This document shows positions 7,717 through 61,448 of a stretch of 64,000 nt of DNA, piece after piece. Location: positions 44,475-108,474 of IMG/VR virus record IMGVR_UViG_3300020477_001475; one strand, given 5' to 3'. The stretch's first letter is position 1, and each line of letters begins with the position of its first letter. Both the position numbers and the translations under genes were made by a program. The notes beneath the pieces were generated by a model. That model searched no databases. It was given only the letters and a program-made list of their open reading frames with translations, and was not told where the DNA came from. The stretch comes from a virus.

Positions 7717-10700
7717 TTAATTACCTAAAATCATATTTACTATGCTTACTATGTCAGTTACATTAACTTGACCATCACCATTAACATCAGAACATTCTGT
7801 TAAATCATTTCCTACAGCACTTTCTAAACTTAAATCCACACCACTCAAAACAAAATTAACAATACTTACGACATCAGAAACATTAACATCACCAGTACCA
7901 TTTACATCACCCGGAATACATGACACAACATCTTCGACAGTACCACTGAATAAATATCCAAAAACATAATCTATTTTATCATTTAATTCTTGTTCTTTTT
8001 GTGTTATCCTTTCACTCTTTAACTTTACATTCTTCTTATTAGAAAATGTTTTAACTTTAGTGTGAAGACTTCCAATTTGATCAGAAAATGAAATTATATT
8101 TGATGTTCTGTATTTAGTTGGTATTATATTAGTAACAATAACTTCAACTACATCAGAACCTATCATTTCTTGTTCAGGTAATCCAAATGTTTCACCTAAA
8201 ACTTCCAACTTAAATTTAAGAACAATTTCATCATAACCTTGTGGTAATTCTGGTGCTTCCCATTCCAAATATGGAGATTCAGACCAAGGCAGTATATGTT
8301 CTGGTGTTCTTCTTTGTGGGTTAATAGGGTTATCTGTAATTGGATTTCCTATAAAAACCCATTCGTTACCATTCCAACGATACCATCTATATTTCAATGA
8401 TTCAGTACTACCATCACATATAGAATTAGCAGCTTGAAATGAATTACTACCATCTAACACAAATTTTCTCAATGGTTTAACCCAAAAATCTTCATTAACT
8501 ATTGCTACAACTGGTGGTATTATAGATGTAGAAACTTTAAACCCAGGTTCAAGTCTATGTACATACTCCCAACTACAACCATTTTGTTCACAATCTTCTT
8601 GATTTGTAATTGACAAATCACATTCACAAAATTCACTATACCATTGTCCTCCTGATGAATCTTGTTCCCATTCAAATACTCTATGGTCATCGTCAATAAT
8701 ATTATCCGTATATGCTTCTATTTTAAATAAGAAGTCAGTATCATAAGGTTCTTCTGAATTGTTATATGGATAACTACCACCATATCTTATCCATTCCCTA
8801 CAAGATAAATTTTGCCAATCATATATGGAATTATATCCAATAGAATATGAAGTATCATTTATATTAAAACCAGAATTAGTAATTCTTATATCAAAGGGTA
8901 TTTGATATAAATCATCAATACCTTGTACAGTACCAGGATTAGAAACTGTAAACCAACCATCTCTAGGAATTTCAAATAAGTGTCCATATTGGTCGTGTAC
9001 CCTTGATACAATTCTCAATCTAACATCAGTTATAGTTTGTGTACTATATACTTGTGCACGAAATTTTATAATATCATCTAAAATTACAGATGGAGTATCA
9101 TAATCACAATCACTTGGGTTATGATAATACCAATCAAAATCATAATTACCAGCATTAGGATCACTACAACCTGTACAAACATCCCAAAAATCTAAACAAC
9201 AATTACCCTCATCATACATACATTCTAATATATCACAAGAACAGTAATCACCACCAACATTAGAATTCCCACATTCATCTACACATGACCCTCTAAATGA
9301 ACAACAAATTTCATCAGTACCAGATGAAGGGAAAGTTTCATAAATATTACCACCACAATCTACCCACACAGATTCACCATCATAAATACCTGTTGGATAT
9401 GGATCAAAATTAATAGCTTCTTGATTTAAACATTCAGCACATACAGTATTATCACCATCACAAATATTACAAACATCAATTTCTGAATCACAGTAACATA
9501 ATGCTTCATTATCTTCATAATCATTAGTATCAATAAATTCGTAACCATCAGGACAACCACCATCTATGACAAGATTTTCATCACCTTCACATGCAATTAA
9601 AATTTGGTTATCTTGGAAATTACACCCAATACCATCACAATCATAATCCAAATAATAACATTTAGGTGTTATACAACAACCATCTAACCCGTGAGTTTCA
9701 GTACATTGAGTATTAGGTATACCTTCTTCCCAATTAGTTGTCCAAAAATTATAAATTACATTTTTATTACAATAATCGCCACTTCCACTTATCATACCAT
9801 TAGCAACACCAACACAACCAAAATCAACTGCATCTTGGTCAAGATTGTCAACACAACCCACAAATTCACAATCACCAGAATCTACTGTACAAGTTTCACA
9901 ATAATTGAAAGCTCCTTGATCTGTACAACCATAACAATAATCATCATCTTCAAAACCATTTGGAACACAACCACAATGTTCAGTGAGATATTCTTGATTT
10001 GTACAACAACATTCACAATGTTCTTCACCATCTTGATGCCCTAAATGATTTTGACATTCACAAGGACCATCACCATTACAGATACCACATTCATCTTCTA
10101 ATGCACTACCATTACATGAACCTTCACAATCAAAATAATTTTCTTCACAATCACAATATTCATCCGCTTCACCACAATCTTCTGTAGTAGGGTATTCAGT
10201 ACATTCTTCAAATCCTGGACACCAATATTGTAAATCGTCACAACATCCTATACCATCACCATCTGAATCATAATAACGAATATTTTCATAATATGGATTA
10301 CACAAATCTGGGTTGTGATGTACTCCATCTAAATCTTCAGCACAATCTACTACATTAACTTCATCACAATTATAATTACCATTATATATACCTTTAGCTT
10401 TAGGATTCAAACTACTAATATGATGGACATGTTCCTCATATAAAACTTCATAATCACCAAAAGTTGGATTATCTATACCTGAAATAGCTGGACAAGGACA
10501 TTTATCTATACCTTCAGGACAATCTACACCATTAACACCATCGTCACAATAAAATAAACATCCAGAAAAGATACAACAACAATTCTCATATTCACAATCA
10601 GGACATTGAGCACCAGCATTATCTGCACCAGAATCTTCATCACATTCATATGTAAGATCACATTGTAAATCGAACAAATCACTTCCATCTAGATAACAGT

Positions 10701-11301
10701 CCCAATTCGGATTAACAATATCTCCAGGATACTCCCAATTTTCAGTACAAGGATTTGCCATTAGCATTCCAATTGAATTACCAGAAATATCTGAACACAT
10801 ATCACCAAATACATCTGTATTACAAGAACAATGACCCCAAAGATTTGGATCAACAGTTTCATCTTCCCATACATAAAAATAAGCATCATGGGATAGACCA
10901 TCATTACCATCGGTGTTATACCAACAACCATATGGATGTGAGTTACCATTGCTATCATTACAAGCACCACCTTCAAATGCATTTAGTACTGGTACTGCTG
11001 TCAAATTAACACAAGGCCATTCACAAGTTTCTAATGTATCTTCTATATTTCCAGGAGTTGTTGTTTCTACTGCAATAGGTGATGTTACATTTTTAGAAGC
11101 TTCTATTGCATCTTGAAATTTTTGTATATTAATCCGTTTTTGAATTTCTGGTTTTAATTTAGGGTTTGTTGTAATTAAAACTTTATCCTTTTCTTTTTGG
11201 GATAATTTAGTCTTTTGTTTTGGTGGAGTTTTAGGTTTAGTTGATTTCTTTGACTTGTCAACATCCACTATACCCACATTAATTTCAAAATTACCACTCA
11301 T
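7717..11301 (-). CDS. Cys-rich repeat protein with somatomedin-B-like, PKD-like and C-terminal dockerin domains
   Basis: GCTDQGAFNY repeat, YYDSDGDGIGC, SMB-like SCVDEC..CSCDILEC..NCCLDFWDVC, PKD-like VLDGSNSF..LKYRW..LKFKLEV, duplicated dockerin GDVNGTGDVNVSDVVSIVNFVL / SDVNGDGQVNVTDIVSIVNMIL. Confidence 0.8.
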   Translation of the reverse strand: MSGNFEINVGIVDVDKSKKSTKPKTPPKQKTKLSQKEKDKVLITTNPKLKPEIQKRINIQKFQDAIEASKNVTSPIAVETTTPGNIEDTLETCEWPCVNLTAVPVLNAFEGGACNDSNGNSHPYGCWYNTDGNDGLSHDAYFYVWEDETVDPNLWGHCSCNTDVFGDMCSDISGNSIGMLMANPCTENWEYPGDIVNPNWDCYLDGSDLFDLQCDLTYECDEDSGADNAGAQCPDCEYENCCCIFSGCLFYCDDGVNGVDCPEGIDKCPCPAISGIDNPTFGDYEVLYEEHVHHISSLNPKAKGIYNGNYNCDEVNVVDCAEDLDGVHHNPDLCNPYYENIRYYDSDGDGIGCCDDLQYWCPGFEECTEYPTTEDCGEADEYCDCEENYFDCEGSCNGSALEDECGICNGDGPCECQNHLGHQDGEEHCECCCTNQEYLTEHCGCVPNGFEDDDYCYGCTDQGAFNYCETCTVDSGDCEFVGCVDNLDQDAVDFGCVGVANGMISGSGDYCNKNVIYNFWTTNWEEGIPNTQCTETHGLDGCCITPKCYYLDYDCDGIGCNFQDNQILIACEGDENLVIDGGCPDGYEFIDTNDYEDNEALCYCDSEIDVCNICDGDNTVCAECLNQEAINFDPYPTGIYDGESVWVDCGGNIYETFPSSGTDEICCSFRGSCVDECGNSNVGGDYCSCDILECMYDEGNCCLDFWDVCTGCSDPNAGNYDFDWYYHNPSDCDYDTPSVILDDIIKFRAQVYSTQTITDVRLRIVSRVHDQYGHLFEIPRDGWFTVSNPGTVQGIDDLYQIPFDIRITNSGFNINDTSYSIGYNSIYDWQNLSCREWIRYGGSYPYNNSEEPYDTDFLFKIEAYTDNIIDDDHRVFEWEQDSSGGQWYSEFCECDLSITNQEDCEQNGCSWEYVHRLEPGFKVSTSIIPPVVAIVNEDFWVKPLRKFVLDGSNSFQAANSICDGSTESLKYRWYRWNGNEWVFIGNPITDNPINPQRRTPEHILPWSESPYLEWEAPELPQGYDEIVLKFKLEVLGETFGLPEQEMIGSDVVEVIVTNIIPTKYRTSNIISFSDQIGSLHTKVKTFSNKKNVKLKSERITQKEQELNDKIDYVFGYLFSGTVEDVVSCIPGDVNGTGDVNVSDVVSIVNFVLSGVDLSLESAVGNDLTECSDVNGDGQVNVTDIVSIVNMILGN

Positions 11302-11304
11302 AAC

Positions 11305-12027
11305 TTAATTTTCCAACGAATAATCATTTGGATAATTGATTATTATTCTATTATGATTTTCTGATTCAGGTGGACAATCCAAATAATCGTGACAACAATT
11401 ATAATTATTCTTACATAATGAATTACAATAACAAGTAGCACCACTTGTAATTGGTGTATAAGTTCCACAACTTTCTACACAAGTATTACCATCATCATAA
11501 CCATTAAAATTATTAAAACCTGGAGTTATCCAAAAAGTTTCGGGTGTATCTTTGTAAATCCAATCACCACCATAAACATCATTTCCTCCCATTCCATCAA
11601 CAATCCGTTTCCAAACTGTATCAACTCCATTATCTTGGGAACTAAATTCATAATTAACAAAATTTATTTCTACATCATCACTGTCATTCAATGATATCCA
11701 GTCACTTGGATCACTTCCCCAACTGTAATCACAACCAATATGCCCATTACAATTGTCATAAGGTAAAAATATAATTTTATACCCACCCTTTTTTATAATA
11801 TAATCATCTAAAATAAGAGGATTTGGAAATGTAGATGCATTTAATACCCAACCACCCAATTGTATATTATAATTACTTCTATTATAAAGTTCAACATATC
11901 TATTCTGGGTTTCTTGTAAATCTGGAAGAATTTCTGATCCATAGTAAAATTCTGTAAGTGAAAAGTCTACATCACCACCCATCCAATTATATATTTCGTT
12001 TACAACTACATCACCTAAATTAGCCAT
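11305..12027 (-). CDS. Lamin-tail-domain protein with C-terminal somatomedin-B-like domain
   Basis: VVVNEIY..YVELYNRS..IQLGGWVL (LTD); SCG..CYCNSLCKNNYNCCHDYLDC (SMB Cys pattern). Confidence 0.7.
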   Translation of the reverse strand: MANLGDVVVNEIYNWMGGDVDFSLTEFYYGSEILPDLQETQNRYVELYNRSNYNIQLGGWVLNASTFPNPLILDDYIIKKGGYKIIFLPYDNCNGHIGCDYSWGSDPSDWISLNDSDDVEINFVNYEFSSQDNGVDTVWKRIVDGMGGNDVYGGDWIYKDTPETFWITPGFNNFNGYDDGNTCVESCGTYTPITSGATCYCNSLCKNNYNCCHDYLDCPPESENHNRIIINYPNDYSLEN

Positions 12028-12463
12028 TTATAAGCTCCATTTTAGAATCTACTATGTTTTTACCATTTTTACCAACACATATCAATTCATCAAACTTTAT
12101 ATATTTCATATCTACATTCTTTTCCATATCCAATTTAAATAAAAATGTCTTTTTTTCGGCTCTTGGTAATAAATTACCACCCATATTAAATGAAAGAATA
12201 CGAAAGTTACCAACTAACAAGTTAAATTTACTATCCGTCAATATACTTTTAACAGCATTTTTACTGAATACATTATCAGCCTTCTCAGAATCATATGTTC
12301 TATATAATTCCTTTTCGTTTGGGGCATTATGTTTCCTCTGTTTAACATCCAAATTTAAATTACGCAAATTGTGTTTAAACTGAAAACCCCTCATAACTTC
12401 TGTCGAAATGTATGAAAAATCTAAAGATATTCCTAACTTTCTTTCTACATAAAATCTTACCAT
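12020..12463 (-). CDS. Stand-alone cohesin-like beta-sandwich protein
   Basis: MRGFQF..ILSFNMGGNLLP..LFKL..ELICVGKNG parallels VAGFQF..VLGFSFDGSVIP..LTII..DIVISDTNG of the 59946 protein. Confidence 0.45.
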   Translation of the reverse strand: MVRFYVERKLGISLDFSYISTEVMRGFQFKHNLRNLNLDVKQRKHNAPNEKELYRTYDSEKADNVFSKNAVKSILTDSKFNLLVGNFRILSFNMGGNLLPRAEKKTFLFKLDMEKNVDMKYIKFDELICVGKNGKNIVDSKMELING

Positions 12464-12519
12464 ATTAATTTAAATCCTTATTGAAAAATAAAACAATATA
12501 TACATAAATATTTAATCCT

Positions 12520-12548
12520 AAAAAAAATACCCCTGTTGTTGGGGTATT
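12520..12548 (-). terminator. Rho-independent terminator
   Basis: AATACCCC-AACAACA-GGGGTATT hairpin followed by a T-run on the minus strand. Confidence 0.75.
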
Positions 12549-12577
12549 ATATAAAAATATTGATTTTATTTATGATA

Positions 12578-12775
12578 TTATCTTTCTATATCTGAATAAT
12601 TAACATACCATATCTTTCCTAAATCATCTTTAACTCTGAGGTCTTTATCAGGAAAACCTACTTCATCAATTTTAACCTTTTCACCTTCACGGAGCATTCC
12701 ATCTACCGTAGGAATATTTCTTATTACTATAACCCGTTCACCAATTTTAAAATTACTTTTTATCATTAGAATCAC
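12578..12775 (-). CDS. Small hypothetical protein (SH3-like barrel)
   Basis: FKIGERVIV..GEKVKI..GKIWYV pattern. Confidence 0.5.
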   Translation of the reverse strand: MILMIKSNFKIGERVIVIRNIPTVDGMLREGEKVKIDEVGFPDKDLRVKDDLGKIWYVNYSDIER

Positions 12776-12917
12776 CTTCCATTTTTTCCATAGCCGATTC
12801 CAATTCTTTCAATTCTTTTTTAAAGCCATCTAATGTCCAACCATCATGATAACCTGCGTGGGCTAATTCTGTTTTCAAATACTTTATTCTTTTTTTCATC
12901 TGTTCTTTATCCATCAT
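12753..12917 (-). CDS. Small hypothetical protein (~54 aa, below the ORF-track cutoff)
   Basis: MMDKEQMKKRIKYLKTELAHAGYHDGW...; fills the gap and overlaps both neighbours. Confidence 0.55.
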   Translation of the reverse strand: MMDKEQMKKRIKYLKTELAHAGYHDGWTLDGFKKELKELESAMEKMEGDSNDKK

Positions 12918-13192
12918 CTTATAGACTTTTTAGTTCTTTTTTTGGATTTAACAGATTTTTTAATAGAATCACCTATAACATCTGGTTTTTTATTTTTTTT
13001 AGATGTTTTTGGTTTAGTTTTAACAGCTTTTGGTTTTTCTTCGACCTTTTCTGTTGAAATAGTTGTACCAACTTTATCATCATTTAATAATTCTGATATA
13101 GTTCTCGATAAAAAAGCTCTATCTTGAGATGAAAATAAATTTAACCTATAATGTTCATCTAAAACTCTTCTTATTTTTTCTTTAATTTCCAT
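12914..13192 (-). CDS. Hypothetical protein with Lys-rich C-terminus
   Basis: AGGAG SD, 92-aa ORF in operon. Confidence 0.55.
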   Translation of the reverse strand: MEIKEKIRRVLDEHYRLNLFSSQDRAFLSRTISELLNDDKVGTTISTEKVEEKPKAVKTKPKTSKKNKKPDVIGDSIKKSVKSKKRTKKSIR

Positions 13193-13206
13193 ATGTAACT
13201 CCTATT

Positions 13207-13728
13207 TTATTTACAAAATCTTTTTGAACCAAAAAAATCACCAACATTAGTAAAATAACAATTTGGACACAATAACCTTAAATTATCATAAGTATAATTA
13301 TCAGTATTACCATCTATAAAATCCAACGATAAACATATCTTATCATCTGTTATCCTCTTTTCATTCCATTTACACAAACTACACTCTTCAACCATATAAC
13401 CAGCATTTATCAATCGTGTTTTTAATTTCGAAGATGAATAACCTTTATACTTGTTTGCTAAAATTTCATCCAAATCGTAGGAAGAATAAACAAATTTCTT
13501 TTCTATACCCTTCCCACTTTGATTTTTATGTTGTTCAAATATGTCATAATATTTAGCCCATTTTTTGTAAGTATTGTAATTAACACCTAACCATCTAGCA
13601 GCTTCAGAATTAGACCTTGTATTTTCTACAGCATCTTCGATCATCTTTTTAGTTAATACAAATCTTTTTCCTGGTATCTTGACATATTTTTTAACAGAAC
13701 CCATTAATAATCTTTTTGATATACCCAT
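13207..13728 (-). CDS. HTH plus degenerate HNH zinc-finger protein
   Basis: SNSEAARWLGVNYNTYKKW HTH; CSLC..LDFIDGN..NLRLLCPNCY HNH-like with His residues substituted. Confidence 0.65.
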   Translation of the reverse strand: MGISKRLLMGSVKKYVKIPGKRFVLTKKMIEDAVENTRSNSEAARWLGVNYNTYKKWAKYYDIFEQHKNQSGKGIEKKFVYSSYDLDEILANKYKGYSSSKLKTRLINAGYMVEECSLCKWNEKRITDDKICLSLDFIDGNTDNYTYDNLRLLCPNCYFTNVGDFFGSKRFCK

Positions 13729-13916
13729 GAATTAGGATCAATATTTACAACCTTTTGTTCACGTAAATGTGTAGCAGTTTGATTGTCTATCTTCCTATGA
13801 GGTGAATTATTATTACTCAAAGATTGTTCTACCCAAAATAATTCACTTGGTTCTATATCTTTATATCTATAAGAAAGCCAATCTATATGACCTTTTTCCT
13901 TTGGAAAATCCGGCAT
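13704..13916 (-). CDS. Hypothetical protein
   Basis: ORF in operon context. Confidence 0.45.
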   Translation of the reverse strand: MPDFPKEKGHIDWLSYRYKDIEPSELFWVEQSLSNNNSPHRKIDNQTATHLREQKVVNIDPNSWVYQKDY

Positions 13917-13917
13917 A

Positions 13918-14299: not shown

Positions 14300-14323
14300 A
14301 ATATTCTCCTCATATATATATAT

Positions 14324-14467: not shown

Positions 14468-14469
14468 TT

Positions 14470-25310: not shown

Positions 25311-25967
25311 CTATTCTTCTCCTCTCACAAATCTTTTTTTCACTAATGATTTTGATACATCCAACAAAATAGATTCTTCCCATTTTAAAAAAGAAACATC
25401 AGACAATTTTCCAAGATCATAATCAGGATTATGTTCTGGTTCAGGTGATAACCTTTTCACCAAAACTTCATTAACCAACCATTTTCTATTATGATATTCA
25501 TGATTGTGTGTTTTCCATCTACTACCACCACCTCTATACTCAATTTCATCCTTTTCATAATGAGCAATATCAGCTTCTTTAAGCCTTAACATATAATCAG
25601 AATCTTCATAACCACCACCCACATAATTTTCATCAAGAAATCCAACTTGTTGTATAAGTTGCTTTTTAAACCCAAAAAATGCAAATCTCCATAAACCAAC
25701 AAACCCATAACCATCATCCAATAAATTTAAAGTTCTTTCGATTTGCTCATAATTTGGTTTACATCTATCGGAACAAATTATAACTATTTCAGTATCGGTC
25801 ATTAATATAGAATCATTTATAAGTTTAGAGAAGCTAGGATAATTAGATCCATCTTTTCTAAGAACCATTTTTTCATCTATACCCAAAGAAATAATATGAT
25901 TGTAAATTGGATCAGAGTGCGTAGGTTCACAAGATGGTATAACTATTGTAAAATCTTTTCTATCCAC
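25311..25967 (-). CDS. Glycosyltransferase family 2-like
   Basis: VGFLDENYVGGGYEDSDY. Confidence 0.65.
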   Translation of the reverse strand: MDRKDFTIVIPSCEPTHSDPIYNHIISLGIDEKMVLRKDGSNYPSFSKLINDSILMTDTEIVIICSDRCKPNYEQIERTLNLLDDGYGFVGLWRFAFFGFKKQLIQQVGFLDENYVGGGYEDSDYMLRLKEADIAHYEKDEIEYRGGGSRWKTHNHEYHNRKWLVNEVLVKRLSPEPEHNPDYDLGKLSDVSFLKWEESILLDVSKSLVKKRFVRGEE

Positions 25968-25972
25968 TTTCC

Positions 25973-27223
25973 TTATACTCCCACAAAATTTTTCAATTCT
26001 AAATGACTATCCACTATTTGCATTTCTGGAAAAGCTACTATATATCTATAACCTCTACCATTTAACTTTTCAATAATCATTTTAGAAAAATTCCAAGCAA
26101 AAATAAAAATATAATCTGGTTTTTCATTATCGTTATCTAAATGTTCTTTACTGACAATAGGTACGTGAGTTCCTGCTATATATCTATCAATTCTTTCTGG
26201 TGATTCATCTACTATGTAGTCAACCATATCAGTCGTAATACCTGCCAAATTACAAAGCATTGTTGCCCTACCAGATGCACCATAACCCACAATTTTCATA
26301 TCTTGACTCTTTAAATCTTCCAATGTTTCTTTAATAACTTCAATATGTTGATTGACTTTTTTACCAAATGATGTAAAATATTCCAATGATGTTATTTCCC
26401 AATCATCTCTTTCAAGATATAACCTACCAGACACTTTTTTATTTAATTTTTCTTGTGAATTTTTAACTAAAACTCTAATACTTCCCGCGTGTATGGGTAT
26501 TTCTTCAAAATCTACAACAGTCATATCGTATTTTTTAAATAAGTTATACAAAGCAGTCAACGAATAATAATAAAGATGTTCGTGATAAATATTATCATAT
26601 TGCAATTTTTCAATCAATGGTTTAACATAATGAACTTCTATTTGAAAATAACCATCTTCCTTTAGTGTCTTTTTAACACCTTTAACAATAGATTGTATGT
26701 CGTCTATATGTGCAAAACAATTATTTGATATTACAAAATCAAACCTATTTTCAAATTCAAATTTACCAACAAATTCTTCATTGAAATATTCATTATATAC
26801 ATTACAACCCTTCGATTCGGCTATTTCACATATATTAACTGCTGGATCAACTCCCACCGCATCAATACCCAAATCCATTAAGGGTTTTAATAAAACACCA
26901 TCATTAGAACCAATTTCCAAAACATTTTTTGGGTTAAATTTACTTTTTATATTCTTAGCTACATCAGAAAAATGATTAGATAAACCAATAGATGACATAT
27001 AACGATAATCTTCAAATAATACATCAGCATCTACTATACTGTCAGTTTGCAATAAGCTACATTTTTCACAAAATTGAATATTCAAATTATACTTCTTATC
27101 ATTTTTTAGTCCTTCTTTATCCAAAAAATCTCCAGCTAACGGTACATTACCATATTCCATTATAGTGTGTAAATTTTTATTATCACACACTGCGCATCGT
27201 GTTCTTGTCTTGTATTCATTCAT
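25973..27223 (-). CDS. NDP-sugar C-methyltransferase
   Basis: N-terminal CAVC/CEKC zinc site, EIGSNDG, YHEHLYY, HAGSIR, GYGASGR, FAWNF. Confidence 0.85.
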   Translation of the reverse strand: MNEYKTRTRCAVCDNKNLHTIMEYGNVPLAGDFLDKEGLKNDKKYNLNIQFCEKCSLLQTDSIVDADVLFEDYRYMSSIGLSNHFSDVAKNIKSKFNPKNVLEIGSNDGVLLKPLMDLGIDAVGVDPAVNICEIAESKGCNVYNEYFNEEFVGKFEFENRFDFVISNNCFAHIDDIQSIVKGVKKTLKEDGYFQIEVHYVKPLIEKLQYDNIYHEHLYYYSLTALYNLFKKYDMTVVDFEEIPIHAGSIRVLVKNSQEKLNKKVSGRLYLERDDWEITSLEYFTSFGKKVNQHIEVIKETLEDLKSQDMKIVGYGASGRATMLCNLAGITTDMVDYIVDESPERIDRYIAGTHVPIVSKEHLDNDNEKPDYIFIFAWNFSKMIIEKLNGRGYRYIVAFPEMQIVDSHLELKNFVGV

Positions 27224-51896: not shown

Positions 51897-52769
51897 TTAT
51901 TTATATAGGCTGAAATATCTTTCACCCCTATCACATAGAATTGTAACTACAACTCCATTGGGATTATGTTTTTCAATCCACCGTTCAGATGCTAACACAT
52001 TGGCTCCAGCCGATATACCAACAAATAAACCATTCTCTTTCGCAAGTCTTAATGCTCTTTCTTTAGCTTCTTCTGTAGATATAGTTATAACTTCACCCAC
52101 TTTATCTAAATCTACTAAAAACTTTGAACCATCACCAATACCTTGTATTCCGTGAAGTCCTTTTTCACCACCACTCATTACAGGAGATTCTGCAGGTTCT
52201 ACTGCTACAATTTTTGTTTTAAGATTTCTTTCTTCAACACCTTTTTGTAAACCCATTAAAGTTCCACCAGTTCCAGTACCAGCAATAAAAGCTGATATTT
52301 CTTGATTGAATTTTATCTGTGATGCATCGTTTAGGATTTCTTCAAATGTTGTCTTATGGTGACATTCAATGTTTAATGGATTATTAAATTGATTTAACTC
52401 AACATAACCATACCATTGAGCTAATTCTTCTTTATATCTAATAGCTTCATCAAAATCACCAGCATCAACTTCTTCTAAATCTGCTCCAAAGAACTTCATC
52501 ATCTTTTTTCGTTCTTCTGACATATCTGATGGCATAACGATTACACATTTATATCCTCGTTCTGCACACATCATAGCTAATGATATACCTGTGTTACCAC
52601 TTGTAGCTTCTATAATAGTATCACCTTTTTTTAATAATCCATCTTTTTCATATCTATCAAGAATATATTTAACAGGTCTATCCTTTATAGAACCACCAGG
52701 ATTGATAGCTTCTAACTTACCATATAACTTATCTGACAATTTTATCAGAGGTGTATTTCCTACTTCCAT
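51897..52769 (-). CDS. cysK: Cysteine synthase (O-acetylserine sulfhydrylase)
   Basis: GNTPL, NPGGSIKDR, ATSGNTG, GTGGT, HGIQGIG, DRGERY. Confidence 0.92.
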   Translation of the reverse strand: MEVGNTPLIKLSDKLYGKLEAINPGGSIKDRPVKYILDRYEKDGLLKKGDTIIEATSGNTGISLAMMCAERGYKCVIVMPSDMSEERKKMMKFFGADLEEVDAGDFDEAIRYKEELAQWYGYVELNQFNNPLNIECHHKTTFEEILNDASQIKFNQEISAFIAGTGTGGTLMGLQKGVEERNLKTKIVAVEPAESPVMSGGEKGLHGIQGIGDGSKFLVDLDKVGEVITISTEEAKERALRLAKENGLFVGISAGANVLASERWIEKHNPNGVVVTILCDRGERYFSLYK

Positions 52770-53038: not shown

Positions 53039-53070
53039 AATATATAACATTTTCAGGTATAAAGTCAAGC
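53039..53070 (-). promoter_or_regulatory. Conserved sigma70-like phage promoter
   Basis: GCTTGACTTTATACCTGAAAATGTTATATATT. Confidence 0.6.
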
Positions 53071-53081
53071 ATTTTTTATTA

Positions 53082-53336
53082 TTATGTGGGAATATTTTCT
53101 TGAGGTTGTATAGGATAAACAAATTGACATTGTGAACCACATACATTTATATTTCTACCCATCAAACAACACATAGAAATTGACAAATCGTTTATTGTTA
53201 TTTCACCATCACCATCATAGTCATTGAATTTAACACAATGTGAAGAATTACATATATCAATACCTGATTGTGCAACATTACAGTCTCCACCACAACCACC
53301 ATAAAACCACATTAAAGCTTCACTATAAGTTGACAT
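53082..53336 (-). CDS. Small Cys-rich protein with a single dockerin/EF-hand-like loop
   Basis: DYDGDGEITINDL. Confidence 0.55.
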   Translation of the reverse strand: MSTYSEALMWFYGGCGGDCNVAQSGIDICNSSHCVKFNDYDGDGEITINDLSISMCCLMGRNINVCGSQCQFVYPIQPQENIPT

Positions 53337-54448
53337 TATTTTCTCCTCCCAGGCCTATACCCACCTTTTCTCTTTTTTATTCTTTTACCACCATTTCCTT
53401 TGTGTGCATTCATCCCAACATTAACACTTTGATTTAAATATTGTGAAATAGTCAATGGTGTTCTTTCTACCGGTACCTTTTTAGTACCCTTTCTTTTAGT
53501 AGTTACCACAGGGGGTATTGGCGTTTGTTGTGTTGTAAGTTGATTGATAATTTGATTACCTTGAGTTGTATTTGGTCCTAATATACTATTAACTAAATTA
53601 ACAATATCAACTACATTTACTGTTCCATCACTATTAACATCTGCATTTTGAAGTGCTTGACCAACTAAATTATTACTACCCAATACATGATTTACAATTT
53701 GAACTATATCTACAACATTTACAACACCGTCTAAATTTGTATCACCTACTAAACCTTCCACTACAAAATTTTGTTCATAATCAGGAGTGGGATATCCTGG
53801 TGATGCATTATTTGAAAAAGTTGTGGGTGTCCAACTATTAGGATTATATGGATCAGTCAATGATATGGATTTAGTACCTCCCACATTAGTATTCCCATCA
53901 TCCGTATATTGAACATAAGTATGTGCATTAGTATAGTTACCTGTCCACTTACCTGTTGTATTATTAGTTGGTGGAGAAATATTTGATGGAAACAGAGCAA
54001 TTAAATCACAATCCCCATTTTGATGTGAGCAATCATAATCACCACAACCATGATTAGAAGTATTAGCTGGTTGATTAGAATCATTATACCCCATAACATA
54101 ACAAGGAGGATCTGGATTAGGGAAATTATTAATATTTTTATCATATATATCAGTACAATTCAAACCACCACATGGAGATGGAGATTCATATACAACTAAA
54201 AATTCTCCAGGTGGTAATATACAATCATTATTACAATAATTGGCAGTACCTGTCCAACCACCTTGACCTTGATAACATAAATCAAAATCAATCCATTTAT
54301 CGTCTTCATATCCACAATCAGTATTCCCAGGATGTCCATTATAACCAACAAACTTCCAACCACTTAAAGGTACTGGTGTATTACCAGCATTAAATATTTC
54401 AATCCATTCTGGTTCTGATTTTGATGATATTTCTGTTATTACAATCAT
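53336..54448 (-). CDS. Lamin-tail domain plus dockerin protein with basic C-terminal tail
   Basis: IVITEI..EWIEIFNAG..LSGWKF..LPPGEFLVV (LTD); GDTNLDGVVNVVDIVQIVNHVL / ADVNSDGTVNVVDIVNLVNSIL. Confidence 0.8.
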   Translation of the reverse strand: MIVITEISSKSEPEWIEIFNAGNTPVPLSGWKFVGYNGHPGNTDCGYEDDKWIDFDLCYQGQGGWTGTANYCNNDCILPPGEFLVVYESPSPCGGLNCTDIYDKNINNFPNPDPPCYVMGYNDSNQPANTSNHGCGDYDCSHQNGDCDLIALFPSNISPPTNNTTGKWTGNYTNAHTYVQYTDDGNTNVGGTKSISLTDPYNPNSWTPTTFSNNASPGYPTPDYEQNFVVEGLVGDTNLDGVVNVVDIVQIVNHVLGSNNLVGQALQNADVNSDGTVNVVDIVNLVNSILGPNTTQGNQIINQLTTQQTPIPPVVTTKRKGTKKVPVERTPLTISQYLNQSVNVGMNAHKGNGGKRIKKRKGGYRPGRRK

Positions 54449-55215
54449 TTATCCATAAACCTATCATAAGGTGTTTTTTCATAATTTCTGGTAGAACTTC
54501 TATTCCAACTTACTGGCATATCATTTATAAGTTCAAATGATCTGGGATTATAATTTGCACCAGATTTTATTCTATCCAATTGTTTATCCGACATAGATTT
54601 CCCATCCCTAATAAATAAATATTTTGAACCTCTAACTTTTTTAGAAATTCCAGTAAAATCTTTATATATTATATTATTTATAAGCATTTTATCCACAATA
54701 CCAATACTTTGATGATTAACTAATTGCATATGTTTAATTTTTGTTGCATTACCCATGTTCGCTGACGACCACATTTCTTTTCTTTCTTCAAAAGCTGGTA
54801 TTTCCAAATAATATAAATCCATAAAAAATCTGTGATCCATATGAGCATACCACATACCTTCATATATAATTTTTTCAACTAACTTGGCATCAAATTTTAT
54901 ACCAGGTTTGGGAACCATAACTACATCTATATCCCATGTAGGATATTCATATAACCAAGAACCAGTTAACCAATAATCATATAAATCATAATGTGCTATT
55001 TTACTAAAACTTTTTCTCCACCTTTTAAATAATAATTCATTTGGTTTATAAAAAGTTCCACTTGTAATTAACGGACCTATTTCAATTGAATTCACATTCC
55101 TACTTAAATTTTTTCTACTGATTGGGAATATCTTACCATCATTATGCTTTTTAATTCTAGAACGATTAGAATTATTGAAAAAAGATCTATCTCTATTTAT
55201 AATTTTTTTTAACAT
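54445..55215 (-). CDS. Pol-beta-superfamily nucleotidyltransferase-like protein
   Basis: WLTGS..WDIDVV..FMD. Confidence 0.55.
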   Translation of the reverse strand: MLKKIINRDRSFFNNSNRSRIKKHNDGKIFPISRKNLSRNVNSIEIGPLITSGTFYKPNELLFKRWRKSFSKIAHYDLYDYWLTGSWLYEYPTWDIDVVMVPKPGIKFDAKLVEKIIYEGMWYAHMDHRFFMDLYYLEIPAFEERKEMWSSANMGNATKIKHMQLVNHQSIGIVDKMLINNIIYKDFTGISKKVRGSKYLFIRDGKSMSDKQLDRIKSGANYNPRSFELINDMPVSWNRSSTRNYEKTPYDRFMDK

Positions 55216-55227
55216 AAAATATTCTCC

Positions 55228-58200
55228 TTAAGACCAATCATAATCATAGTCAAAATAATCATTATAATCATCCCACCAATCTTGTTCAGGCCAATAATCC
55301 CAATAATCAATTATATCATCATCTGGATCGTCATAACTATAATCCCACCAACATGTATAACAATATGGTATATAATCACATTCACCAAGACAACAGCCAT
55401 CAGGACAAAAATAGTCATCATAACCACCACCAAATATTTCTTCCCAGTTACAACTATTATCATAATAACAACCCCAATAATCTATTTCACTACCAGGAAG
55501 CCACCAAGCACTACAATCAGGTGTAGTACATGTTGGAAATTTTGTATATCCCCAATGATTATCACTCTTACAAACCCCAGTAGATATAAATCTACCCAAA
55601 CCTTGTGAAAAATTAAGTCTATACCACATCGCATTATATTTTGCAATACTATGAGGTTCACCTTCTTCATTAAGATAATAGTCAGAATTAAAATTAAACA
55701 TTTTATAATTAGGCATACCTTGATAATCATCTATAATGTCACAATCATTGACATACATCCATTGTTGACCACAATCATCATCCATCAGATTTAGGTATAT
55801 TTGTTCCGGGTTATTTCCCATGTCAACAAATGATTGTGATAATTTCATAGGACCTTTTATTGGTTTACCATCTTCACCAATTCTATAATACCATGGTGCA
55901 CCTTCTTGAAATGGAAATTTAGTATAATTATACATATCATATCTATTTTCAGACTGATTAAAAATATCTCCTTCACCATATACATTATATTCATCTGGCA
56001 TTGGTGAAAATTCATTTGGGTTATATAAACCATCAGCATTTTCAGCGGAAATATTAACAGGAATAGCCGCATTACTTGAAGTTGGTAAAATTTCTTGTAC
56101 TCTTCTAGAAACTATATATGCCCAACCATCCCATGTAGATACAAAATCTATTAATCCAGCATGCCAATGTTCTCCATACCAATAAGGATCCACACCATTT
56201 ACATAATCATCACACGAACCATCTTGTTCATCATGATCAAAAAAACAATTTCTCCAACCATCACCGAGAGCAATTCCTCTCCTATGCCCTAAAAGTACAG
56301 TAGTATTGCTATTACCTTCAACATTTTGCCTTAAAAAATCCAAAGGACTAAAAGGTATACATTGACGTACCAAACCACTAGCACCCATTTCTTGATCATC
56401 AATTGAATCTGTATAATAAACCCAATCATCATGGTCATTGGAATTTGGTGCACCATTAGTTGGTCTAAAATCACATGTGTCTGGGTTGTGACAATGTTTA
56501 ATAGATGTTAAATTGAATCCTTGATCCCAACCTAATTGATCTCCTATAGTACCATCTCCACCTACATCATCACAATAACCAAAATTTCTAGGATCTTTTA
56601 TCACATCCAATAAGTCATTATCATCTGGGCTCAAACCTTTATATCTATCCTTAAAGAAATCAATTACACCCTCTTTTGTTTGCCCATCAGATCCAACACC
56701 ATAAGGATAAGGAACTGTAAAATGTTCCCACCCATTCCTTTCATCCATATAATGAACCCAATCATCTACCCAATCAGGATAAACTTGGAATAACAACCCA
56801 TCATTAGCTGAAAAATCTCCTTCAAATCCATGTTGATCTGCGGGAGTCCATATAGGGTTACCATCATCATCATAAGGGTGTGATCCTGGCCACCTTTCCA
56901 TAACAGGTTGTTCCCATTGAGTATCTGAACAACCTTGAAACCAATTACTATCCTCTGACGGGTTAGAAACGGATATCCCAGGTGAAACTCCCTCTACAGG
57001 GTTAGATTGTAACCAACTAAATCTAATGGAATAATGATACCCATTTTGTACTTGAAATCTATATATAACTACAGATTCATCCATACCACCAGTAGATTCA
57101 TCACCATTTTGTTGATAAAATTCACTTTGACTGATAGTACCAGTATCCTGCCAAGACCATAATATACCAGCTAATTCTTCACATATTGGGTTTGAAAAAG
57201 TATAATTTATCCCCATTTCTTCAGCAGAAGTAAAATTTTCAATTTCTGATTCACATTCATCCCAATGTGAAGAAGTAAACCCATCATCTAAAAATTCAAC
57301 AGAATTTGACCAAAAACAACTACCATCATCCACATTTGCTTTTGGATTATAACTTAAAGCAGAAGGATCTGTACAACCTTCTATTACTTCATATTTTTCC
57401 CACACATTATATAAACCAGTAACATAAAATATACCAGGATAAATTTGAGAATTACCTCTATCTTCATAAGTATCAATATCATAGTGATTTGGGTCTGTTA
57501 AATAAAAACAAAACTTTTTTTGTGGTTCTGAAGAATATGGATTATCACCCGGAAACCAATAACCATTACCATTATAATTTATACCCAATTCTGGTGTTGG
57601 ATTAGATAATTCTAAATTTTCAATAAAACAATGTAATGGAGCAAAATCTGCTGGATATTCATTTGATGGTATTTTACCATGATAACTATTATTAAAAATT
57701 CTGCTACCTTGTTTTGCAATATCAACCCAAGTATCACCATACACAGTAATTGGAGAAGTATCTGTATAATCAGAAGGTATAGAATTATGTGTGGGATATT
57801 CAGGTAAGGGTACACTTGTAGCCGAACCAGCAAACACATCTAACATCGTACCATCATAACCTTGAGTACCAGACGATAATTTACCCCATATATGATCGTC
57901 CACTGAAAAATTATCTTCATCTGTCCATATAACAGCTGATGGTTGTATTGGTAACATAGATTGACCATCATTATTTAACTGACCAGTAGCTTTTTCCGCT
58001 AAATAAATTATAGTTGGGTCATTAGAAAAATATATATTTGCACATTGAGTAGTATACATACCCAGTTCAACATCACCAGCTTGAAATTGATTATCACATT
58101 CTTCTTGACCAGGTCTAGTTAAAAATACCCAATTTTCTATGTCGTCAAAATCAGGTTCATCATCAACAGTCATATCAATGTCCAATGTTTCCAAAACAGT

Positions 58201-59310
58201 ATTGTGTGTATTAGGAGGTGCAAAGTTCATACACCCTTGATTAGAATCATCACCACCACAATATGAATTCATACCATCTTCATTTTGAAATTGTTGCCAA
58301 TATGTTGGAATCCATCCCCAATTATATTGAGGATTTTCACCTCTTTGATAATGTGGATATAATTTACTTTTTGATAAACCATCATTATGACTTAAATCAA
58401 ATTTAAAATACGTTTGGGGTATATCTTCACCTAAATATGTTTGATAAGGAAAACTAAATGTATTTACCCATGCATATTCATCCACATCATGTTCAAACGC
58501 GTCTTGTGACCATATATTAATTCCGTGAGGTAAACAATCTAAAGCAGAACTTTTACAATTATCACATGAAGGTCCAGGACCAAATGGATTATCACAATCA
58601 TTAGAAGTAAATATTTCTTCACATAAGCTATCATCTGATGGGTAAGTATAACCATCACAACCATATAAATTTCCAATTGAACCATCTTCATTTACACACA
58701 CACTGTTTTGACACCAATTTACTGTTTCTTCTGGCCAATTTTCATAACCAAAAGCAGCTGCTCCAGTATTACCATCATAATCTGCAAATCTAGCTCTAGC
58801 TTTAAAAAGAATACCAGTACCAAATTGACTATCAGGTCCACTATTTTCTTCATTAAGTGATATAGCTGTTATACGACTACCAGGTTTAAAACCAGATCCA
58901 TCAGTTTGTTCATTACCTTCTGGATCCAAATTTTTAAAATCCGTATAAAAACCAGCTTCATTATAATAATCACTATAAATTCTTGTTATTTGTATACCAT
59001 TTGGATTTAAATCACCACTTGTGTCTGGTGTTAATGTGTGTTCTGTGTTTGTCCAATCAAAAAATAAATCAAATGAACCTATAGGATTCCAGCAAGGAGG
59101 TTCTGAACAAGTATGTGTTGATGTATCCCACAATACACCATCCCATTCAATATTATCACCCCGAGTCCAAGCTACAGAAAAATTGAAATAACCATTTTCT
59201 TCAGGTTCATTACTAGCAAGAGGGTTGTCACCTTTTGTAAACCATATTTGATTTATATAAAGGTATACATCACAATTACTTTCTGCAACACAATTTTGAT
59301 TAAAAGACAT
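55228..59310 (-). CDS. Large acidic Cys/Trp-rich protein, possible cohesin-like N-terminus, D/Y/W-rich tail
   Basis: 1360 aa; GCTDPSALSYNPKANVDDGSC repeat; PIGSFDL..GF..ITAISL..GILFKA. Confidence 0.7.
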   Translation of the reverse strand: MSFNQNCVAESNCDVYLYINQIWFTKGDNPLASNEPEENGYFNFSVAWTRGDNIEWDGVLWDTSTHTCSEPPCWNPIGSFDLFFDWTNTEHTLTPDTSGDLNPNGIQITRIYSDYYNEAGFYTDFKNLDPEGNEQTDGSGFKPGSRITAISLNEENSGPDSQFGTGILFKARARFADYDGNTGAAAFGYENWPEETVNWCQNSVCVNEDGSIGNLYGCDGYTYPSDDSLCEEIFTSNDCDNPFGPGPSCDNCKSSALDCLPHGINIWSQDAFEHDVDEYAWVNTFSFPYQTYLGEDIPQTYFKFDLSHNDGLSKSKLYPHYQRGENPQYNWGWIPTYWQQFQNEDGMNSYCGGDDSNQGCMNFAPPNTHNTVLETLDIDMTVDDEPDFDDIENWVFLTRPGQEECDNQFQAGDVELGMYTTQCANIYFSNDPTIIYLAEKATGQLNNDGQSMLPIQPSAVIWTDEDNFSVDDHIWGKLSSGTQGYDGTMLDVFAGSATSVPLPEYPTHNSIPSDYTDTSPITVYGDTWVDIAKQGSRIFNNSYHGKIPSNEYPADFAPLHCFIENLELSNPTPELGINYNGNGYWFPGDNPYSSEPQKKFCFYLTDPNHYDIDTYEDRGNSQIYPGIFYVTGLYNVWEKYEVIEGCTDPSALSYNPKANVDDGSCFWSNSVEFLDDGFTSSHWDECESEIENFTSAEEMGINYTFSNPICEELAGILWSWQDTGTISQSEFYQQNGDESTGGMDESVVIYRFQVQNGYHYSIRFSWLQSNPVEGVSPGISVSNPSEDSNWFQGCSDTQWEQPVMERWPGSHPYDDDGNPIWTPADQHGFEGDFSANDGLLFQVYPDWVDDWVHYMDERNGWEHFTVPYPYGVGSDGQTKEGVIDFFKDRYKGLSPDDNDLLDVIKDPRNFGYCDDVGGDGTIGDQLGWDQGFNLTSIKHCHNPDTCDFRPTNGAPNSNDHDDWVYYTDSIDDQEMGASGLVRQCIPFSPLDFLRQNVEGNSNTTVLLGHRRGIALGDGWRNCFFDHDEQDGSCDDYVNGVDPYWYGEHWHAGLIDFVSTWDGWAYIVSRRVQEILPTSSNAAIPVNISAENADGLYNPNEFSPMPDEYNVYGEGDIFNQSENRYDMYNYTKFPFQEGAPWYYRIGEDGKPIKGPMKLSQSFVDMGNNPEQIYLNLMDDDCGQQWMYVNDCDIIDDYQGMPNYKMFNFNSDYYLNEEGEPHSIAKYNAMWYRLNFSQGLGRFISTGVCKSDNHWGYTKFPTCTTPDCSAWWLPGSEIDYWGCYYDNSCNWEEIFGGGYDDYFCPDGCCLGECDYIPYCYTCWWDYSYDDPDDDIIDYWDYWPEQDWWDDYNDYFDYDYDWS

Positions 59311-59390
59311 GAAATCCCCTATTAATTATATTTCTATACATAGATAAATATAAAATTAATATTTTTTAAATAGGGGGAATTAAATAAAAA

Positions 59391-59795
59391 CTATCCGTTG
59401 AATACTTTTTTCTTTTCTCCATGATATTCGTAAGCATGACCATTCTCTTTAAGTAACTCATTTACTGACTTTTCGTGACCTTTTACAAATAATTCACCTA
59501 ATACTCTACCATATTTACCAGTTCCATGTGATATGATTGAGAACTTACCTTCATCTGAATTTTCAAGTAAATCTTTTGTGAATGCTTTAGCGGCTAAACC
59601 TTTTACTTTTTCTTCTTTGTTTCGTGTTCTTGATTCCCAAGTATCAACTCCCATAAATCTGATTCTTTTCTTAACCCAAGTATTAAAACCTAAGTCAATC
59701 ATAGCATCACAAGTATCACCATCAACTACTCTATCTAACTTACAGCTATATCCATGTTTTTTAACTTGTTTTCCCATTATCTTTCTCCCCATCAT
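59391..59795 (-). CDS. Staphylococcal nuclease (thermonuclease) homolog
   Basis: RVVDGDT, RIRFMGVDTWE, GKYGRVLG. Confidence 0.88.
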   Translation of the reverse strand: MMGRKIMGKQVKKHGYSCKLDRVVDGDTCDAMIDLGFNTWVKKRIRFMGVDTWESRTRNKEEKVKGLAAKAFTKDLLENSDEGKFSIISHGTGKYGRVLGELFVKGHEKSVNELLKENGHAYEYHGEKKKVFNG

Positions 59796-59949
59796 CTTTT
59801 ATATCAGCTGTAAAGTATGAATTTATTTTTTTAACTGGAAGTTTTCCTAATTTATCAAATACAATATTTCCATCTTCATCTGTGACATAATCACTTGGTT
59901 TAGTTCCAGCTAATCCATACTTGTCCTGTAATTCCATTCCTATATTCAT
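59761..59949 (-). CDS. Hypothetical protein
   Basis: ATGA-coupled to the upstream gene. Confidence 0.45.
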   Translation of the reverse strand: MNIGMELQDKYGLAGTKPSDYVTDEDGNIVFDKLGKLPVKKINSYFTADIKDDGEKDNGKTS

Positions 59950-61448
59950 TCAGTACTCTCCCAATTATAATTCAATACGTCTAATCTATTTCTAACATCT
60001 AATTGTGGAAAGTTTTCTTCCAACCATTCAACTGATTCAGTGAATGTCGTTCCAAGTATCTGACCTACAACTTGTATTATATCTAAAATATTTAAAATAC
60101 CATCATTGTTTATATCACTAACTAAAAATTGTAAATCAGTTGGTTGGTTTACATTCAACACAAAATTAACTATTTGAACCACATCAACTATATTAATCTC
60201 TCCATCAAAGTTAACATCACCATATAGAATTGATTGAACATCTATACAATCAGGTGTATTACTTTCTATTTCATCACCATTTGTATCTGATATAACTATA
60301 TCTGATGCACAAACTTCAACATCTTCATAAGTCGGTGTAAAATTAATTATCGTTAATGTACCACTACCCGCAGGAATCACACTACCATCAAATGAAAATC
60401 CTAATACAACACCTTGTTCACTTGTAGATACCGTAAAATCATAATTTTCAGCTTCACCACCGCTAGCACCCAACACATCAATTAAATCAGGGGTATCTGT
60501 TAGAGTGAATTGAAATCCCGCAACATCAATATTTGATTCATAATTCACCAATAAATAATCAGTTCCTGGATATTCAAATGTTAAATTTATATAATCACTT
60601 TCTTCTTCTTCAGGTTCACCAATGTAACCAAAAAACCAATCAAGTCTAGACCAGACTTTTGAGTATACTCCCGGATACCCAGCATCAGCTCAACCATATC
60701 CCCAACTGACTATACCGATAAGTTCATATTCACCATCTGAATTAGTCATAATAAGTGGTCCACCACTATCTCCTTGACAAGAATCTTCACCACCATTGTT
60801 ATCACCTGCACATATCATATTATTTGTTATTTCATTACTAATGTAACCACAATCATCATCAATAGGTACATCCACTTCTAATAATACATCAGAACCCCAG
60901 CCACCAGAATAGGTTGCACCCCAACCCATAACTGTTGATATAATTGGTTCTTCATGATGTGATTCATCTGTAACTAATTGTATAGGTTCAAATGTAGTAA
61001 CTGGTTGTGTTAAATGTAATAGAGCATAATCATTATCCAATGACCAACCACTATAATTTGGATGAACTATAATTTGGTCTACATTTCTTGTAACAGCACC
61101 ACTTGTTCCATTCACATTATGCAATCCAACCTTTACTTGTAATCCACCAGGAGATTCTCCTTCTACACAATGTGCGGCTGTTACAACCCAATCTTCTCTA
61201 ACAAGTGAACCACCACAAAAGTGCCCCCAACCATTTCCTTGTAATGAAACCATAAATGGATATTTACAATCCGGACATTCAGGATCAACTTCCTCTCCCC
61301 CAACTATAAATGGTTCTGGCAAATCACCATGATTAGGCATTTCATTTTGAGTTGAATATGTTTCTAAATAACTATTTGTTATCGGGATTGAATTATCACT
61401 CTGGCACCCTAAAACCATTAATAACATTATCAAAAATAATTTCTTCAT
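59946..61448 (-). CDS. Lipoprotein trypsin-like serine protease with cohesin-like and dockerin domains, 500 aa if the in-frame UGA (60690-60692) is read as selenocysteine
   Basis: Lipobox LVLGC; IVGG, TAAHC, DYALL, DSCQGDSGGP, SWGYG-UGA-ADAGYPGVY continuing without a stop into the 59946-60551 ORF. Confidence 0.8.
60642..60689 (-). promoter_or_regulatory. Candidate bacterial SECIS element(s) directly 3' of the UGA
   Basis: Hairpins TGGGTAT-CCGGGAGT-ATACTCA (60660-60681) and AAGTCT-GGTCT-AGACTT (60642-60658). Confidence 0.55.

Follow-up and report, generated by a model that had tools for sequence, protein, structure and literature searches.

The stretch of DNA analysed here (the window) comprises 64 kb, bases 44,475-108,474 of the 108,474-bp virus record IMGVR_UViG_3300020477_001475, and encodes several proteins that contain a dockerin, together with one or two that contain a cohesin. 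Cohesin and dockerin are the textbook plug-and-socket of extracellular protein assembly. The modules are spread over three gene groups, all on the minus strand (Table 1): a four-gene operon headed by a small cohesin-like gene, a block containing a protein with a lamin-tail domain (LTD) and a dockerin, and the gene of a trypsin-like protease with both a cohesin and a dockerin. The minus strand carries all long open reading frames (ORFs), GC content is 26-35% (~29% for the phage) and skew is uniform. The record encodes a T4-type PolB (phrog_262, E 1e-186), which is 47% identical to that of Microcystis phage Mel-JY01 and ~32% to those of cyanomyoviruses, along with an AAA+/DNA_pol3_delta2 clamp-loader-type protein, a dUTPase and an SNase-type nuclease and, outside the window, a baseplate wedge protein and PhoH. 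One contig end falls within an ORF and a terminal repeat is absent, which marks the record as a partial genome; by gene content it belongs to a T4-like myovirus that is uncultured. The contig carries neither capsid nor terminase genes. No near relative was present among 50,697 GenBank phage records.

Table 1. Positions (in window coordinates) and supporting evidence of the features discussed in the text.
Feature	Position	Strand	Evidence
Lipoprotein trypsin-like (S1) protease - cohesin - dockerin (predicted)	59946..61448	-	Single frame interrupted by TGA at Cys220 position
Cohesin-fold module, Marinimicrobia-type (motifs GFQF ... VLGFSFxGxxIPAGxG)	60222..60602	-	Homologues, AlphaFold2, Foldseek, VIA
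Type I dockerin of protease, two Ca-loop/helix repeats	60057..60224	-	Pfam 33.4 bits, PDB sequence matches, VIA
In-frame TGA, conserved Cys position of WGxGCA, candidate selenocysteine codon	60690..60692	-	Comparison with relatives
SECIS-like hairpin, 12-31 nt past U of TGA, G-rich apical loop	60661..60680	-	RNAalifold
147-aa stand-alone protein, probable diverged cohesin, ~30-aa insertion, no signal peptide; heads four-gene operon	12020..12463	-	HMM, hhalign, MAFFT, ESM Atlas, AlphaFold2
LTD + somatomedin-B protein; 8-nt overlap with preceding ORF	11305..12027	-	Pfam LTD 39.4, Somatomedin_B 23.6 bits
1,194-aa Cys-rich protein, K-rich N-terminus, C-terminal dockerin (7726-7914), no signal peptide	7717..11301	-	Dockerin_1 28.1 bits
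First 2,568 aa of 5,119-aa Cys-rich giant protein; extends beyond window; last operon gene	2..7705	-	ORF
LTD + dockerin (53579-53746) protein, K/R-rich C-terminal tail, no signal peptide	53336..54448	-	LTD 40.4, Dockerin_1 37.0 bits; peak K+R 0.37
84-aa Cys-rich ORF, one dockerin-type Ca loop	53082..53336	-	Ca-loop pattern
1,360-aa protein, no known family, Cys-rich and acidic/aromatic C-terminus; tight block with LTD-dockerin gene	55228..59310	-	Pfam/PHROG/HMM scans

Dockerins and cohesins of the phage

The three proteins in which a sequence-only reading of this DNA had seen complete duplicated dockerin repeats all score above the curated cut-off (22.9 bits) of Pfam Dockerin_1 (PF00404): ORF 7717-11301 at aa 1130-1192 (28.1 bits), ORF 53336-54448 at aa 235-290 (37.0 bits) and ORF 59946-61448 in its last third, after an in-frame TGA (33.4 bits). 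A fourth protein consisting of LTD and dockerin (35.2 bits) is encoded outside the window, at positions 25329-26414 of the record. With a dockerin Ca loop defined as an EF-hand-like loop (D/N at positions 1, 3, 5, 9 and 12) followed by a helix, in a duplicated segment of ~22 residues, each of the four proteins contains two such loops. The strict loop pattern occurs eight times in minus-strand ORFs, compared with 0.06 occurrences expected from shuffles. The half repeat reported earlier for the 84-aa ORF 53082-53336 is also borne out, as a single real Ca loop (DYDGDGEITIND), counted among the eight, that shuffles of the same ORF match at a rate of only 1.4e-4, although the ORF has no Pfam match. 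For the protease, the best PDB sequence matches of the C-terminus are solved dockerins, and residues 125-186 of the structure model (which covers the protease dockerin only, among the four of the phage) superimpose on 2ccl_B with a Z of 12.8 and a root-mean-square deviation (rmsd) of 1.2 Å over 62 residues (VIA-align).

Three of the four dockerin proteins (ORFs 7717-11301 and 53336-54448, and that at 25329-26414 of the record) have no signal peptide. They carry K/R-rich low-complexity tails instead, at the N-terminus, at the C-terminus and at both ends, respectively, with a peak K+R fraction per 30-aa window of 0.37-0.47, as opposed to 0.10-0.23 in ten dockerin ORFs sampled from candidate-host genomes (see below). 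This difference suggests that the tails are a phage-specific adaptation, such as one that fixes the proteins to DNA or to the virion; they might bind DNA or the capsid, or pair by charge. Being Cys-rich or Ca-dependent, the three proteins nonetheless look, by their sequences, extracellular.

The fourth dockerin protein, the protease, is different in that its N-terminus is a hydrophobic stretch ending in ...VLGC, a predicted signal of the signal peptidase II (SPII) type, which identifies it as a putative lipoprotein. Its trypsin domain (Pfam PF00089; 180.9 bits, aa 57-252) contains the catalytic motifs TAAHC, DNDYALL and GDSGGP. Between trypsin and dockerin lies a 121-aa stretch (60240-60602), which was used as the cohesin query. 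Pfam Cohesin (PF00963) matched neither this module nor ORF 12020-12463 at E ≤ 5. It also matched none of ten scanned homologues of the protease module, and a profile of the family found no match among PDB sequences. As the Pfam Cohesin and PDB sequence searches were empty, assignment of the module rests on its predicted structure. AlphaFold2 modeled the cohesin-dockerin-tail segment with a pLDDT of 89.8 and a pTM of 0.72 (47-sequence alignment). When the model was compared with the PDB using Foldseek, the ~45 top matches were all cohesins (best E 2e-7, probability 1.0) of types I, II and III as well as non-cellulosomal, the first of them the non-cellulosomal cohesin of Archaeoglobus (2xdh). 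VIA-align, which is independent of Foldseek, aligned 16 cohesins with Z 11.6-12.9 and rmsd 2.3-4.0 Å over 118-125 residues, ahead of the first non-cohesin sandwich (Z 10.3). By its modeled fold, the module is a cohesin, as the sequence-only reading had proposed.

The case of the stand-alone ORF 12020-12463 is less clear-cut. No homologue of it was found (a word-based protein search returned only the 147-aa protein itself, and a scan of IMG/VR was empty), and it has lost the conserved ASGG motif. Within the phage genome, however, it is the top non-self match of the cohesin-family hidden Markov model (HMM), in two collinear pieces (E 1.3e-4), and hhalign aligns it with two cohesin-family alignments at P ~0.01. 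In a MAFFT alignment it can be followed end to end along single-domain family members, with the GFQF and LSF..G blocks flanking its insertion. An independent indication comes from the ESM Atlas, whose leads for this protein are clusters bearing Cohesin, Dockerin_1 or Por_Secre_tail. AlphaFold2, supplied with a 14-sequence family alignment and therefore partly circular, yielded one confident model out of five (pLDDT 74.8), with a confident core and a disordered insertion; cohesins are the best PDB matches of this model (E 4e-4, TM ~0.5), which is weak and again partly circular. Taken together, these individually weak but agreeing signals make it probable that ORF 12020-12463 is a diverged cohesin, and its earlier description as cohesin-like is retained at that strength.

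A third cohesin-like region, suspected at the N-terminus of the 1,360-aa protein (55228-59310), had to be given up: the family HMM did not match, hhalign returned P 0.41, and neither Pfam nor the Atlas gave a signal. Thus, a cohesin fold is predicted with confidence for the protease module, is modeled with partly circular support for ORF 12020-12463, and has no backing in the third region. At its other end (55228-55330), the 1,360-aa protein terminates in an extremely acidic, Trp/Tyr-rich tail. The 5,119-aa giant protein of the operon has no Pfam or PHROG match, and neither cohesin nor dockerin was detected in it.

Counterparts in Marinimicrobia genomes and related viral contigs

At E ≤ 1e-3, an exhaustive HMMER search with the protease cohesin returned 1,460 relatives. 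Many of these contain between two and 14 tandem cohesin copies (maximum 13-14 per protein). A dockerin-type Ca loop is present in 24 of the best 150 relatives, and a Pfam scan of ten family members revealed Dockerin_1 in three, a sorting domain of the type IX secretion system (T9SS) in one and Trypsin_2 in one. Scanning one genome per prokaryotic species for the most conserved peptide of the family identified 54 loci, about half of them in records of Candidatus Neomarinimicrobiota (SAR406, Marinimicrobia) and most of the others in marine metagenome-assembled genomes. At Marinimicrobia-type loci (median GC 34%), cohesins are arranged in arrays of up to eight modules within the stretches fetched, joined by Cys-rich C-G-x-C-x-G-D-G linkers. 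Five such genomes (1.3-2.9 Mb) each yield 31-86 matches to Dockerin_1 above the cut-off, 12-36 to the phage cohesin and 3-16 to LTD.

The architectures found in these genomes are close to those of the phage. The host ORFs that best match the phage cohesin are built as Trypsin_2-Ig-cohesin-dockerin and Trypsin_2-cohesin-cohesin-dockerin (loci L073 and L002), and another combines somatomedin-B, cohesin, dockerin and Por_Secre_tail, that is, a T9SS tail (L074); by coordinates, LTD-dockerin and LTD-cohesin combinations also lie within single host open frames. The dockerin repeats of the phage match the consensus D-x-N-x-D-G-x-[IL]-N-[VI]-x-D-[IV]-[VI]-x-x-V-N-x-I-L, which was built from the dockerins of Marinimicrobia loci and of metagenomic cohesin-family members, and identity between the dockerin of the 1,194-aa protein and those of Marinimicrobia amounts to 52-58%. 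The same protein (8900-10300) has Cys-rich C-G-x-C-x-G-D-G repeats in common with Marinimicrobia cohesin-bearing proteins, which carry them between cohesin modules (identity up to 49%). From its aa 346-460, two matches to cohesin-bearing ORFs of Marinimicrobia were obtained, and the stronger of the two is located between two host cohesin modules. Hence, cohesin, dockerins, LTD, somatomedin-B and Cys-rich linkers of the phage all have counterparts in Neomarinimicrobiota genomes. To judge from these genomes, Marinimicrobia appear to possess a large cohesin-dockerin system at the cell surface that is non-cellulosomal and is composed of tandem-cohesin scaffolds, part of them bearing T9SS sorting domains, and dozens of secreted proteins with a dockerin tag; in the searchable literature, no paper linking Marinimicrobia with dockerins was found. 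A SAR406/Marinimicrobia bacterium is also the most likely host of the phage.

Within IMG/VR, 12 contigs have PolB (~72% identity), the clamp-loader-type protein (~85%), the nuclease (~90%) and the protease in common with the phage. All full-length relatives of the protease possess a signal of the SPII type, the last residues of which are ...SC or ...GC; acidic/polar residues come next. In the 11 contigs that reach the C-terminus of the protease, trypsin runs nearly straight into the dockerin, the Ca loops of which are intact, and residues 283-407, that is, the cohesin, are missing; nor did the cohesin-family HMM match anywhere in the fetched stretches of the 12 contigs. Fragment P0058 is an 80% identical relative. 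Because 11 relatives are devoid of residues 283-407 and the HMM found no match, the cohesin is, as far as these sequences tell, an insertion confined to this phage and the source of P0058.

The ~6.2-kb block 53082-59310, which consists of the genes for the 1,360-aa protein, a 256-aa protein, the LTD-dockerin protein and the 84-aa ORF, is missing at the corresponding place of the related contigs, where the nuclease gene is followed directly by that of a pyridoxal-phosphate (PLP) enzyme or by PolB, and is therefore an accessory insertion in this genome. None of the dockerin, LTD or Cys-rich proteins matched a PHROG. Scans of IMG/VR found no relatives of ORF 12020-12463, the LTD-somatomedin-B protein, the 1,194-aa protein or the LTD-dockerin protein, and tblastn against GenBank phages found no match to cohesin, dockerin or LTD-dockerin.

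The in-frame TGA of the protease gene

In the protease gene, the TGA precedes the parts encoding the cohesin and the dockerin, and ORF 59946-61448 counts as one ORF only if this codon is read through. At the same position, five of the 12 related viral contigs have TGA and seven TGT, and the downstream frame is kept in all of them, irrespective of the codon; in three partial contigs (L057, L060, L065), the residues past it are 85-93% identical. The residues past the codon do not separate the TGA carriers cleanly from the TGT carriers, an argument against descent from one pseudogene. The hairpin downstream of the TGA, which resembles a selenocysteine insertion sequence (SECIS), was seen only in TGA carriers: RNAalifold computed -6.5 kcal/mol for the six TGA carriers (including the window) but only -0.4 kcal/mol for the seven TGT carriers. 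In line with this, the GC content at third positions of the 12 codons after TGA/TGT is 0.33-0.75 in TGA carriers, compared with 0-0.25 in TGT carriers. SelA is encoded in all five candidate-host genomes and tRNA-Sec scores above the gathering score in four of them, counts whose relevance depends on the predicted host being the right one. We therefore consider it probable, on comparative grounds, that the TGA is decoded as selenocysteine and that the protease is a phage-encoded selenoprotein, which would leave the protease-cohesin-dockerin protein intact.

Proposed docking onto host scaffolds and competing explanations

Two explanations had been offered for these modules at the outset, a complex built by the phage for its virion surface and docking of phage proteins onto a cohesin-dockerin layer of the host. 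We favor the latter, at a probability of about 0.5: phage proteins would dock, via their dockerins, onto cohesin scaffolds of Marinimicrobia. Four observations lead to this view. The phage encodes 4.5 dockerins (counting the single loop as a half) but only one or two cohesins; its relatives keep the dockerin without the cohesin in the recovered stretches; the candidate host is rich in arrays of cohesins of the same family; and each phage architecture has a host counterpart. The circumstantial support for docking that comes from the host counterparts and from the dockerin-only protease of the relatives is strong.

How such docking might work can be outlined as follows. The phage would have captured modules of the host system, leaving four proteins that end in host-type dockerins, of which the lipoprotein protease would additionally have gained a host-type cohesin. 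The dockerins, depending on Ca2+, would plug the phage proteins into the cohesin scaffolds of the host. The protease would be exported in the infected cell by means of its SPII signal and sit on the cell surface. The Cys-rich and LTD dockerin proteins, which have no signal peptide, would mature only outside the cell, either on the virion or after lysis, and would then bind cohesins of host cells, for instance as an aid to adsorption. The phage cohesin or cohesins could capture further dockerin proteins as a second layer, as an adaptor scaffoldin does.

Several points weigh against docking onto the host. Three of the four dockerin proteins lack a secretion signal and have K/R-rich tails, unlike the sampled host dockerin proteins; they could be internal to the virion and never meet a cohesin. 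Production of the protease cohesin and dockerin requires that the TGA be read through. Assignment of the host relies on the similarity of modules and on low GC only (~29% in the phage, median 34% at the host loci). Furthermore, non-cellulosomal dockerin-like domains do not always have proven cohesin partners. Finally, translation of the stand-alone cohesin-like gene is coupled to that of a dockerin protein, which suits pairing within the phage equally well.

This last point leads to the other explanation offered at the outset, in which the phage cohesins (ORF 12020-12463 and the protease module) bind the phage dockerins, independently of any host cohesin, to form a modular complex of Cys-rich giant proteins that is displayed on the virion surface or released by lysis. 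The arrangement of the operon, in which the cohesin-like ORF, the LTD-somatomedin-B gene, the 1,194-aa dockerin protein and the 5,119-aa giant overlap or abut, is what would be expected of such a complex. ORF 12020-12463 and its putative partners all lack a signal peptide and would thus share a compartment, and the protein behind 2xdh also has cohesin and dockerin on one chain. Nevertheless, one or two cohesins face 4.5 dockerins, the stand-alone module is highly diverged, without ASGG and without detectable relatives, and the stretches recovered from related phages contain the dockerin but no cohesin. The Ca2+ concentration and redox state of the cytoplasm are, moreover, unfavorable for the folding of dockerins and Cys-rich proteins. 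A self-contained assembly is unlikely in our judgment but retains real weight, given that the cohesin-like ORF stands at the head of this operon.

We regard it as equally improbable that the modules are mere passengers, that is, recent captures from the host secretome that play no cohesin-dependent role or act as auxiliary genes. In one variant, an extracellular protease would raise the supply of amino acids, its dockerin being a retained tag or a Ca2+-stabilized or glycan-binding appendage. The accessory nature of block 53082-59310, which is missing between the nuclease and PLP-enzyme genes of related contigs, is compatible with recent capture, as are the lack of a PHROG family for any of these proteins and the lack of relatives of the LTD-dockerin and Cys-rich proteins in IMG/VR or GenBank phages. 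Yet the trypsin-dockerin lipoprotein has been kept, with intact Ca loops, in 12 diverged contigs, and one genome holds four independent dockerin genes. The missing signal peptides and the basic tails, which set the phage proteins apart from the sampled host proteins, likewise point to adaptation rather than raw capture. That the contig is chimeric or host-derived and the modules bacterial is very improbable, since the host-like modules of this metagenomic and incomplete record (one open ORF at an end, no terminal repeat) lie in a source entry classified as virus, with a one-strand gene layout, uniform GC and skew, T4-type PolB, clamp loader, baseplate wedge and PhoH, and since 12 independent viral contigs have the protease next to the nuclease and PolB.

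Some other genes of the window deserve mention. An extended run of sugar-modifying genes (14470-38102; several glycosyltransferases, an aminotransferase, a nucleotide-sugar epimerase and methyltransferases) suggests synthesis or modification of a glycan by the phage. The PLP-dependent enzyme (51897-52769), a cysteine-synthase-like member of the PALP family (236.8 bits), adjoins PolB, is ~80% conserved across the related viral contigs and is possibly an auxiliary metabolic gene. ARAGORN found no tRNA or tmRNA in the whole 108-kb record. The T4 late-promoter motif TATAAATA was considered as a clue to expression timing but discarded; with 32 copies on the coding strand, one of them upstream of PolB, it is uninformative in an AT-rich genome.

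Among known systems, the non-cellulosomal modules of Archaeoglobus fulgidus (2xdh) and of Clostridium perfringens GH84C/GH33 (2w1n, 2vo8, 2jh2) resemble those of the phage in combining a cohesin β-sandwich with a type I dockerin of two Ca loops, in occurring in proteins unrelated to cellulose degradation, and in that cohesin and dockerin may reside on one polypeptide. The phage cohesin differs in being shorter (~105-125 aa), in belonging to a family that PF00963 does not detect and in being phage-encoded. With the cellulosomal (adaptor) scaffoldins of Clostridia and Ruminococcus, the homologues of the phage cohesin share tandem arrays (13-14 modules) and dozens of dockerin proteins per genome, and the X-cohesin-dockerin layout of the phage protease resembles that of an adaptor scaffoldin. 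In contrast to these, the homologues occur in Marinimicrobia, which are marine and diderm, proteases and LTD or somatomedin-B proteins are among the cargo, the linkers are Cys-rich (C-G-x-C-x-G-D-G), and the anchor, where seen, is a T9SS C-terminal domain rather than a surface-layer homology (SLH) domain or sortase. As to function, the Hoc-type Ig-like/adhesion domains on T4-like virions, accessory modules that bind the host surface and aid reversible adsorption, represent the same concept, whereas the candidate adhesion module of the phage is a dockerin that would bind a specific protein partner of the host.

The earlier statement that no characterised phage system is known to use cohesin and dockerin agrees with the literature, where our search met dockerins of viral contigs in brief mentions only: a dockerin-annotated ORF in Vibrio phage VvAW1 (gene 40; PMC3558961), and dockerins in a putative ANME-2 virus (PMC13452462) and in a brine-pool jumbo phage (10.1101/2024.01.25.577265). 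BFVD contains a few uncultured-phage proteins of the same fold (entries A0A8S5M688 and A0A6J5M064), including one 211-aa 'Dockerin type 1' protein of a Myoviridae phage. None of the earlier mentions couples several dockerin proteins with cohesins in one phage, traces a host-wide system or was characterized. Likewise, our literature search found no description of several dockerin proteins plus cohesins in one phage, of phage modules deriving from a dense Marinimicrobia cohesin-dockerin system, or of a link to a candidate selenoprotein.

The most far-reaching version of docking onto the host, possible but doubtful as a whole, has two parts: virions or lysis-released proteins would bind, with their dockerins as plugs, to tandem-cohesin scaffoldins coating SAR406/Marinimicrobia cells, which would thus serve as receptors, and a selenocysteine-containing, lipid-anchored protease with a cohesin of its own would remodel or extend the scaffold on infected cells. 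Viruses of Marinimicrobia are almost unknown, the first having been described from single cells in 2015 (PMC4611503), and the modules allow a concrete prediction, namely SAR406/Marinimicrobia, of the host of a group of T4-like marine phages that are uncultured. They also point to a large cohesin-dockerin system, of which the searchable literature gave no mention, in a phylum that ranks among the most abundant uncultured ones of the ocean. If docking onto the host is correct, the phage dockerins are expected to bind Marinimicrobia cohesins in the presence of Ca2+, and such pairs would be new orthogonal parts for protein assembly; recognition between phage and host would then proceed by hijacking the host's own protein plug-and-socket system.

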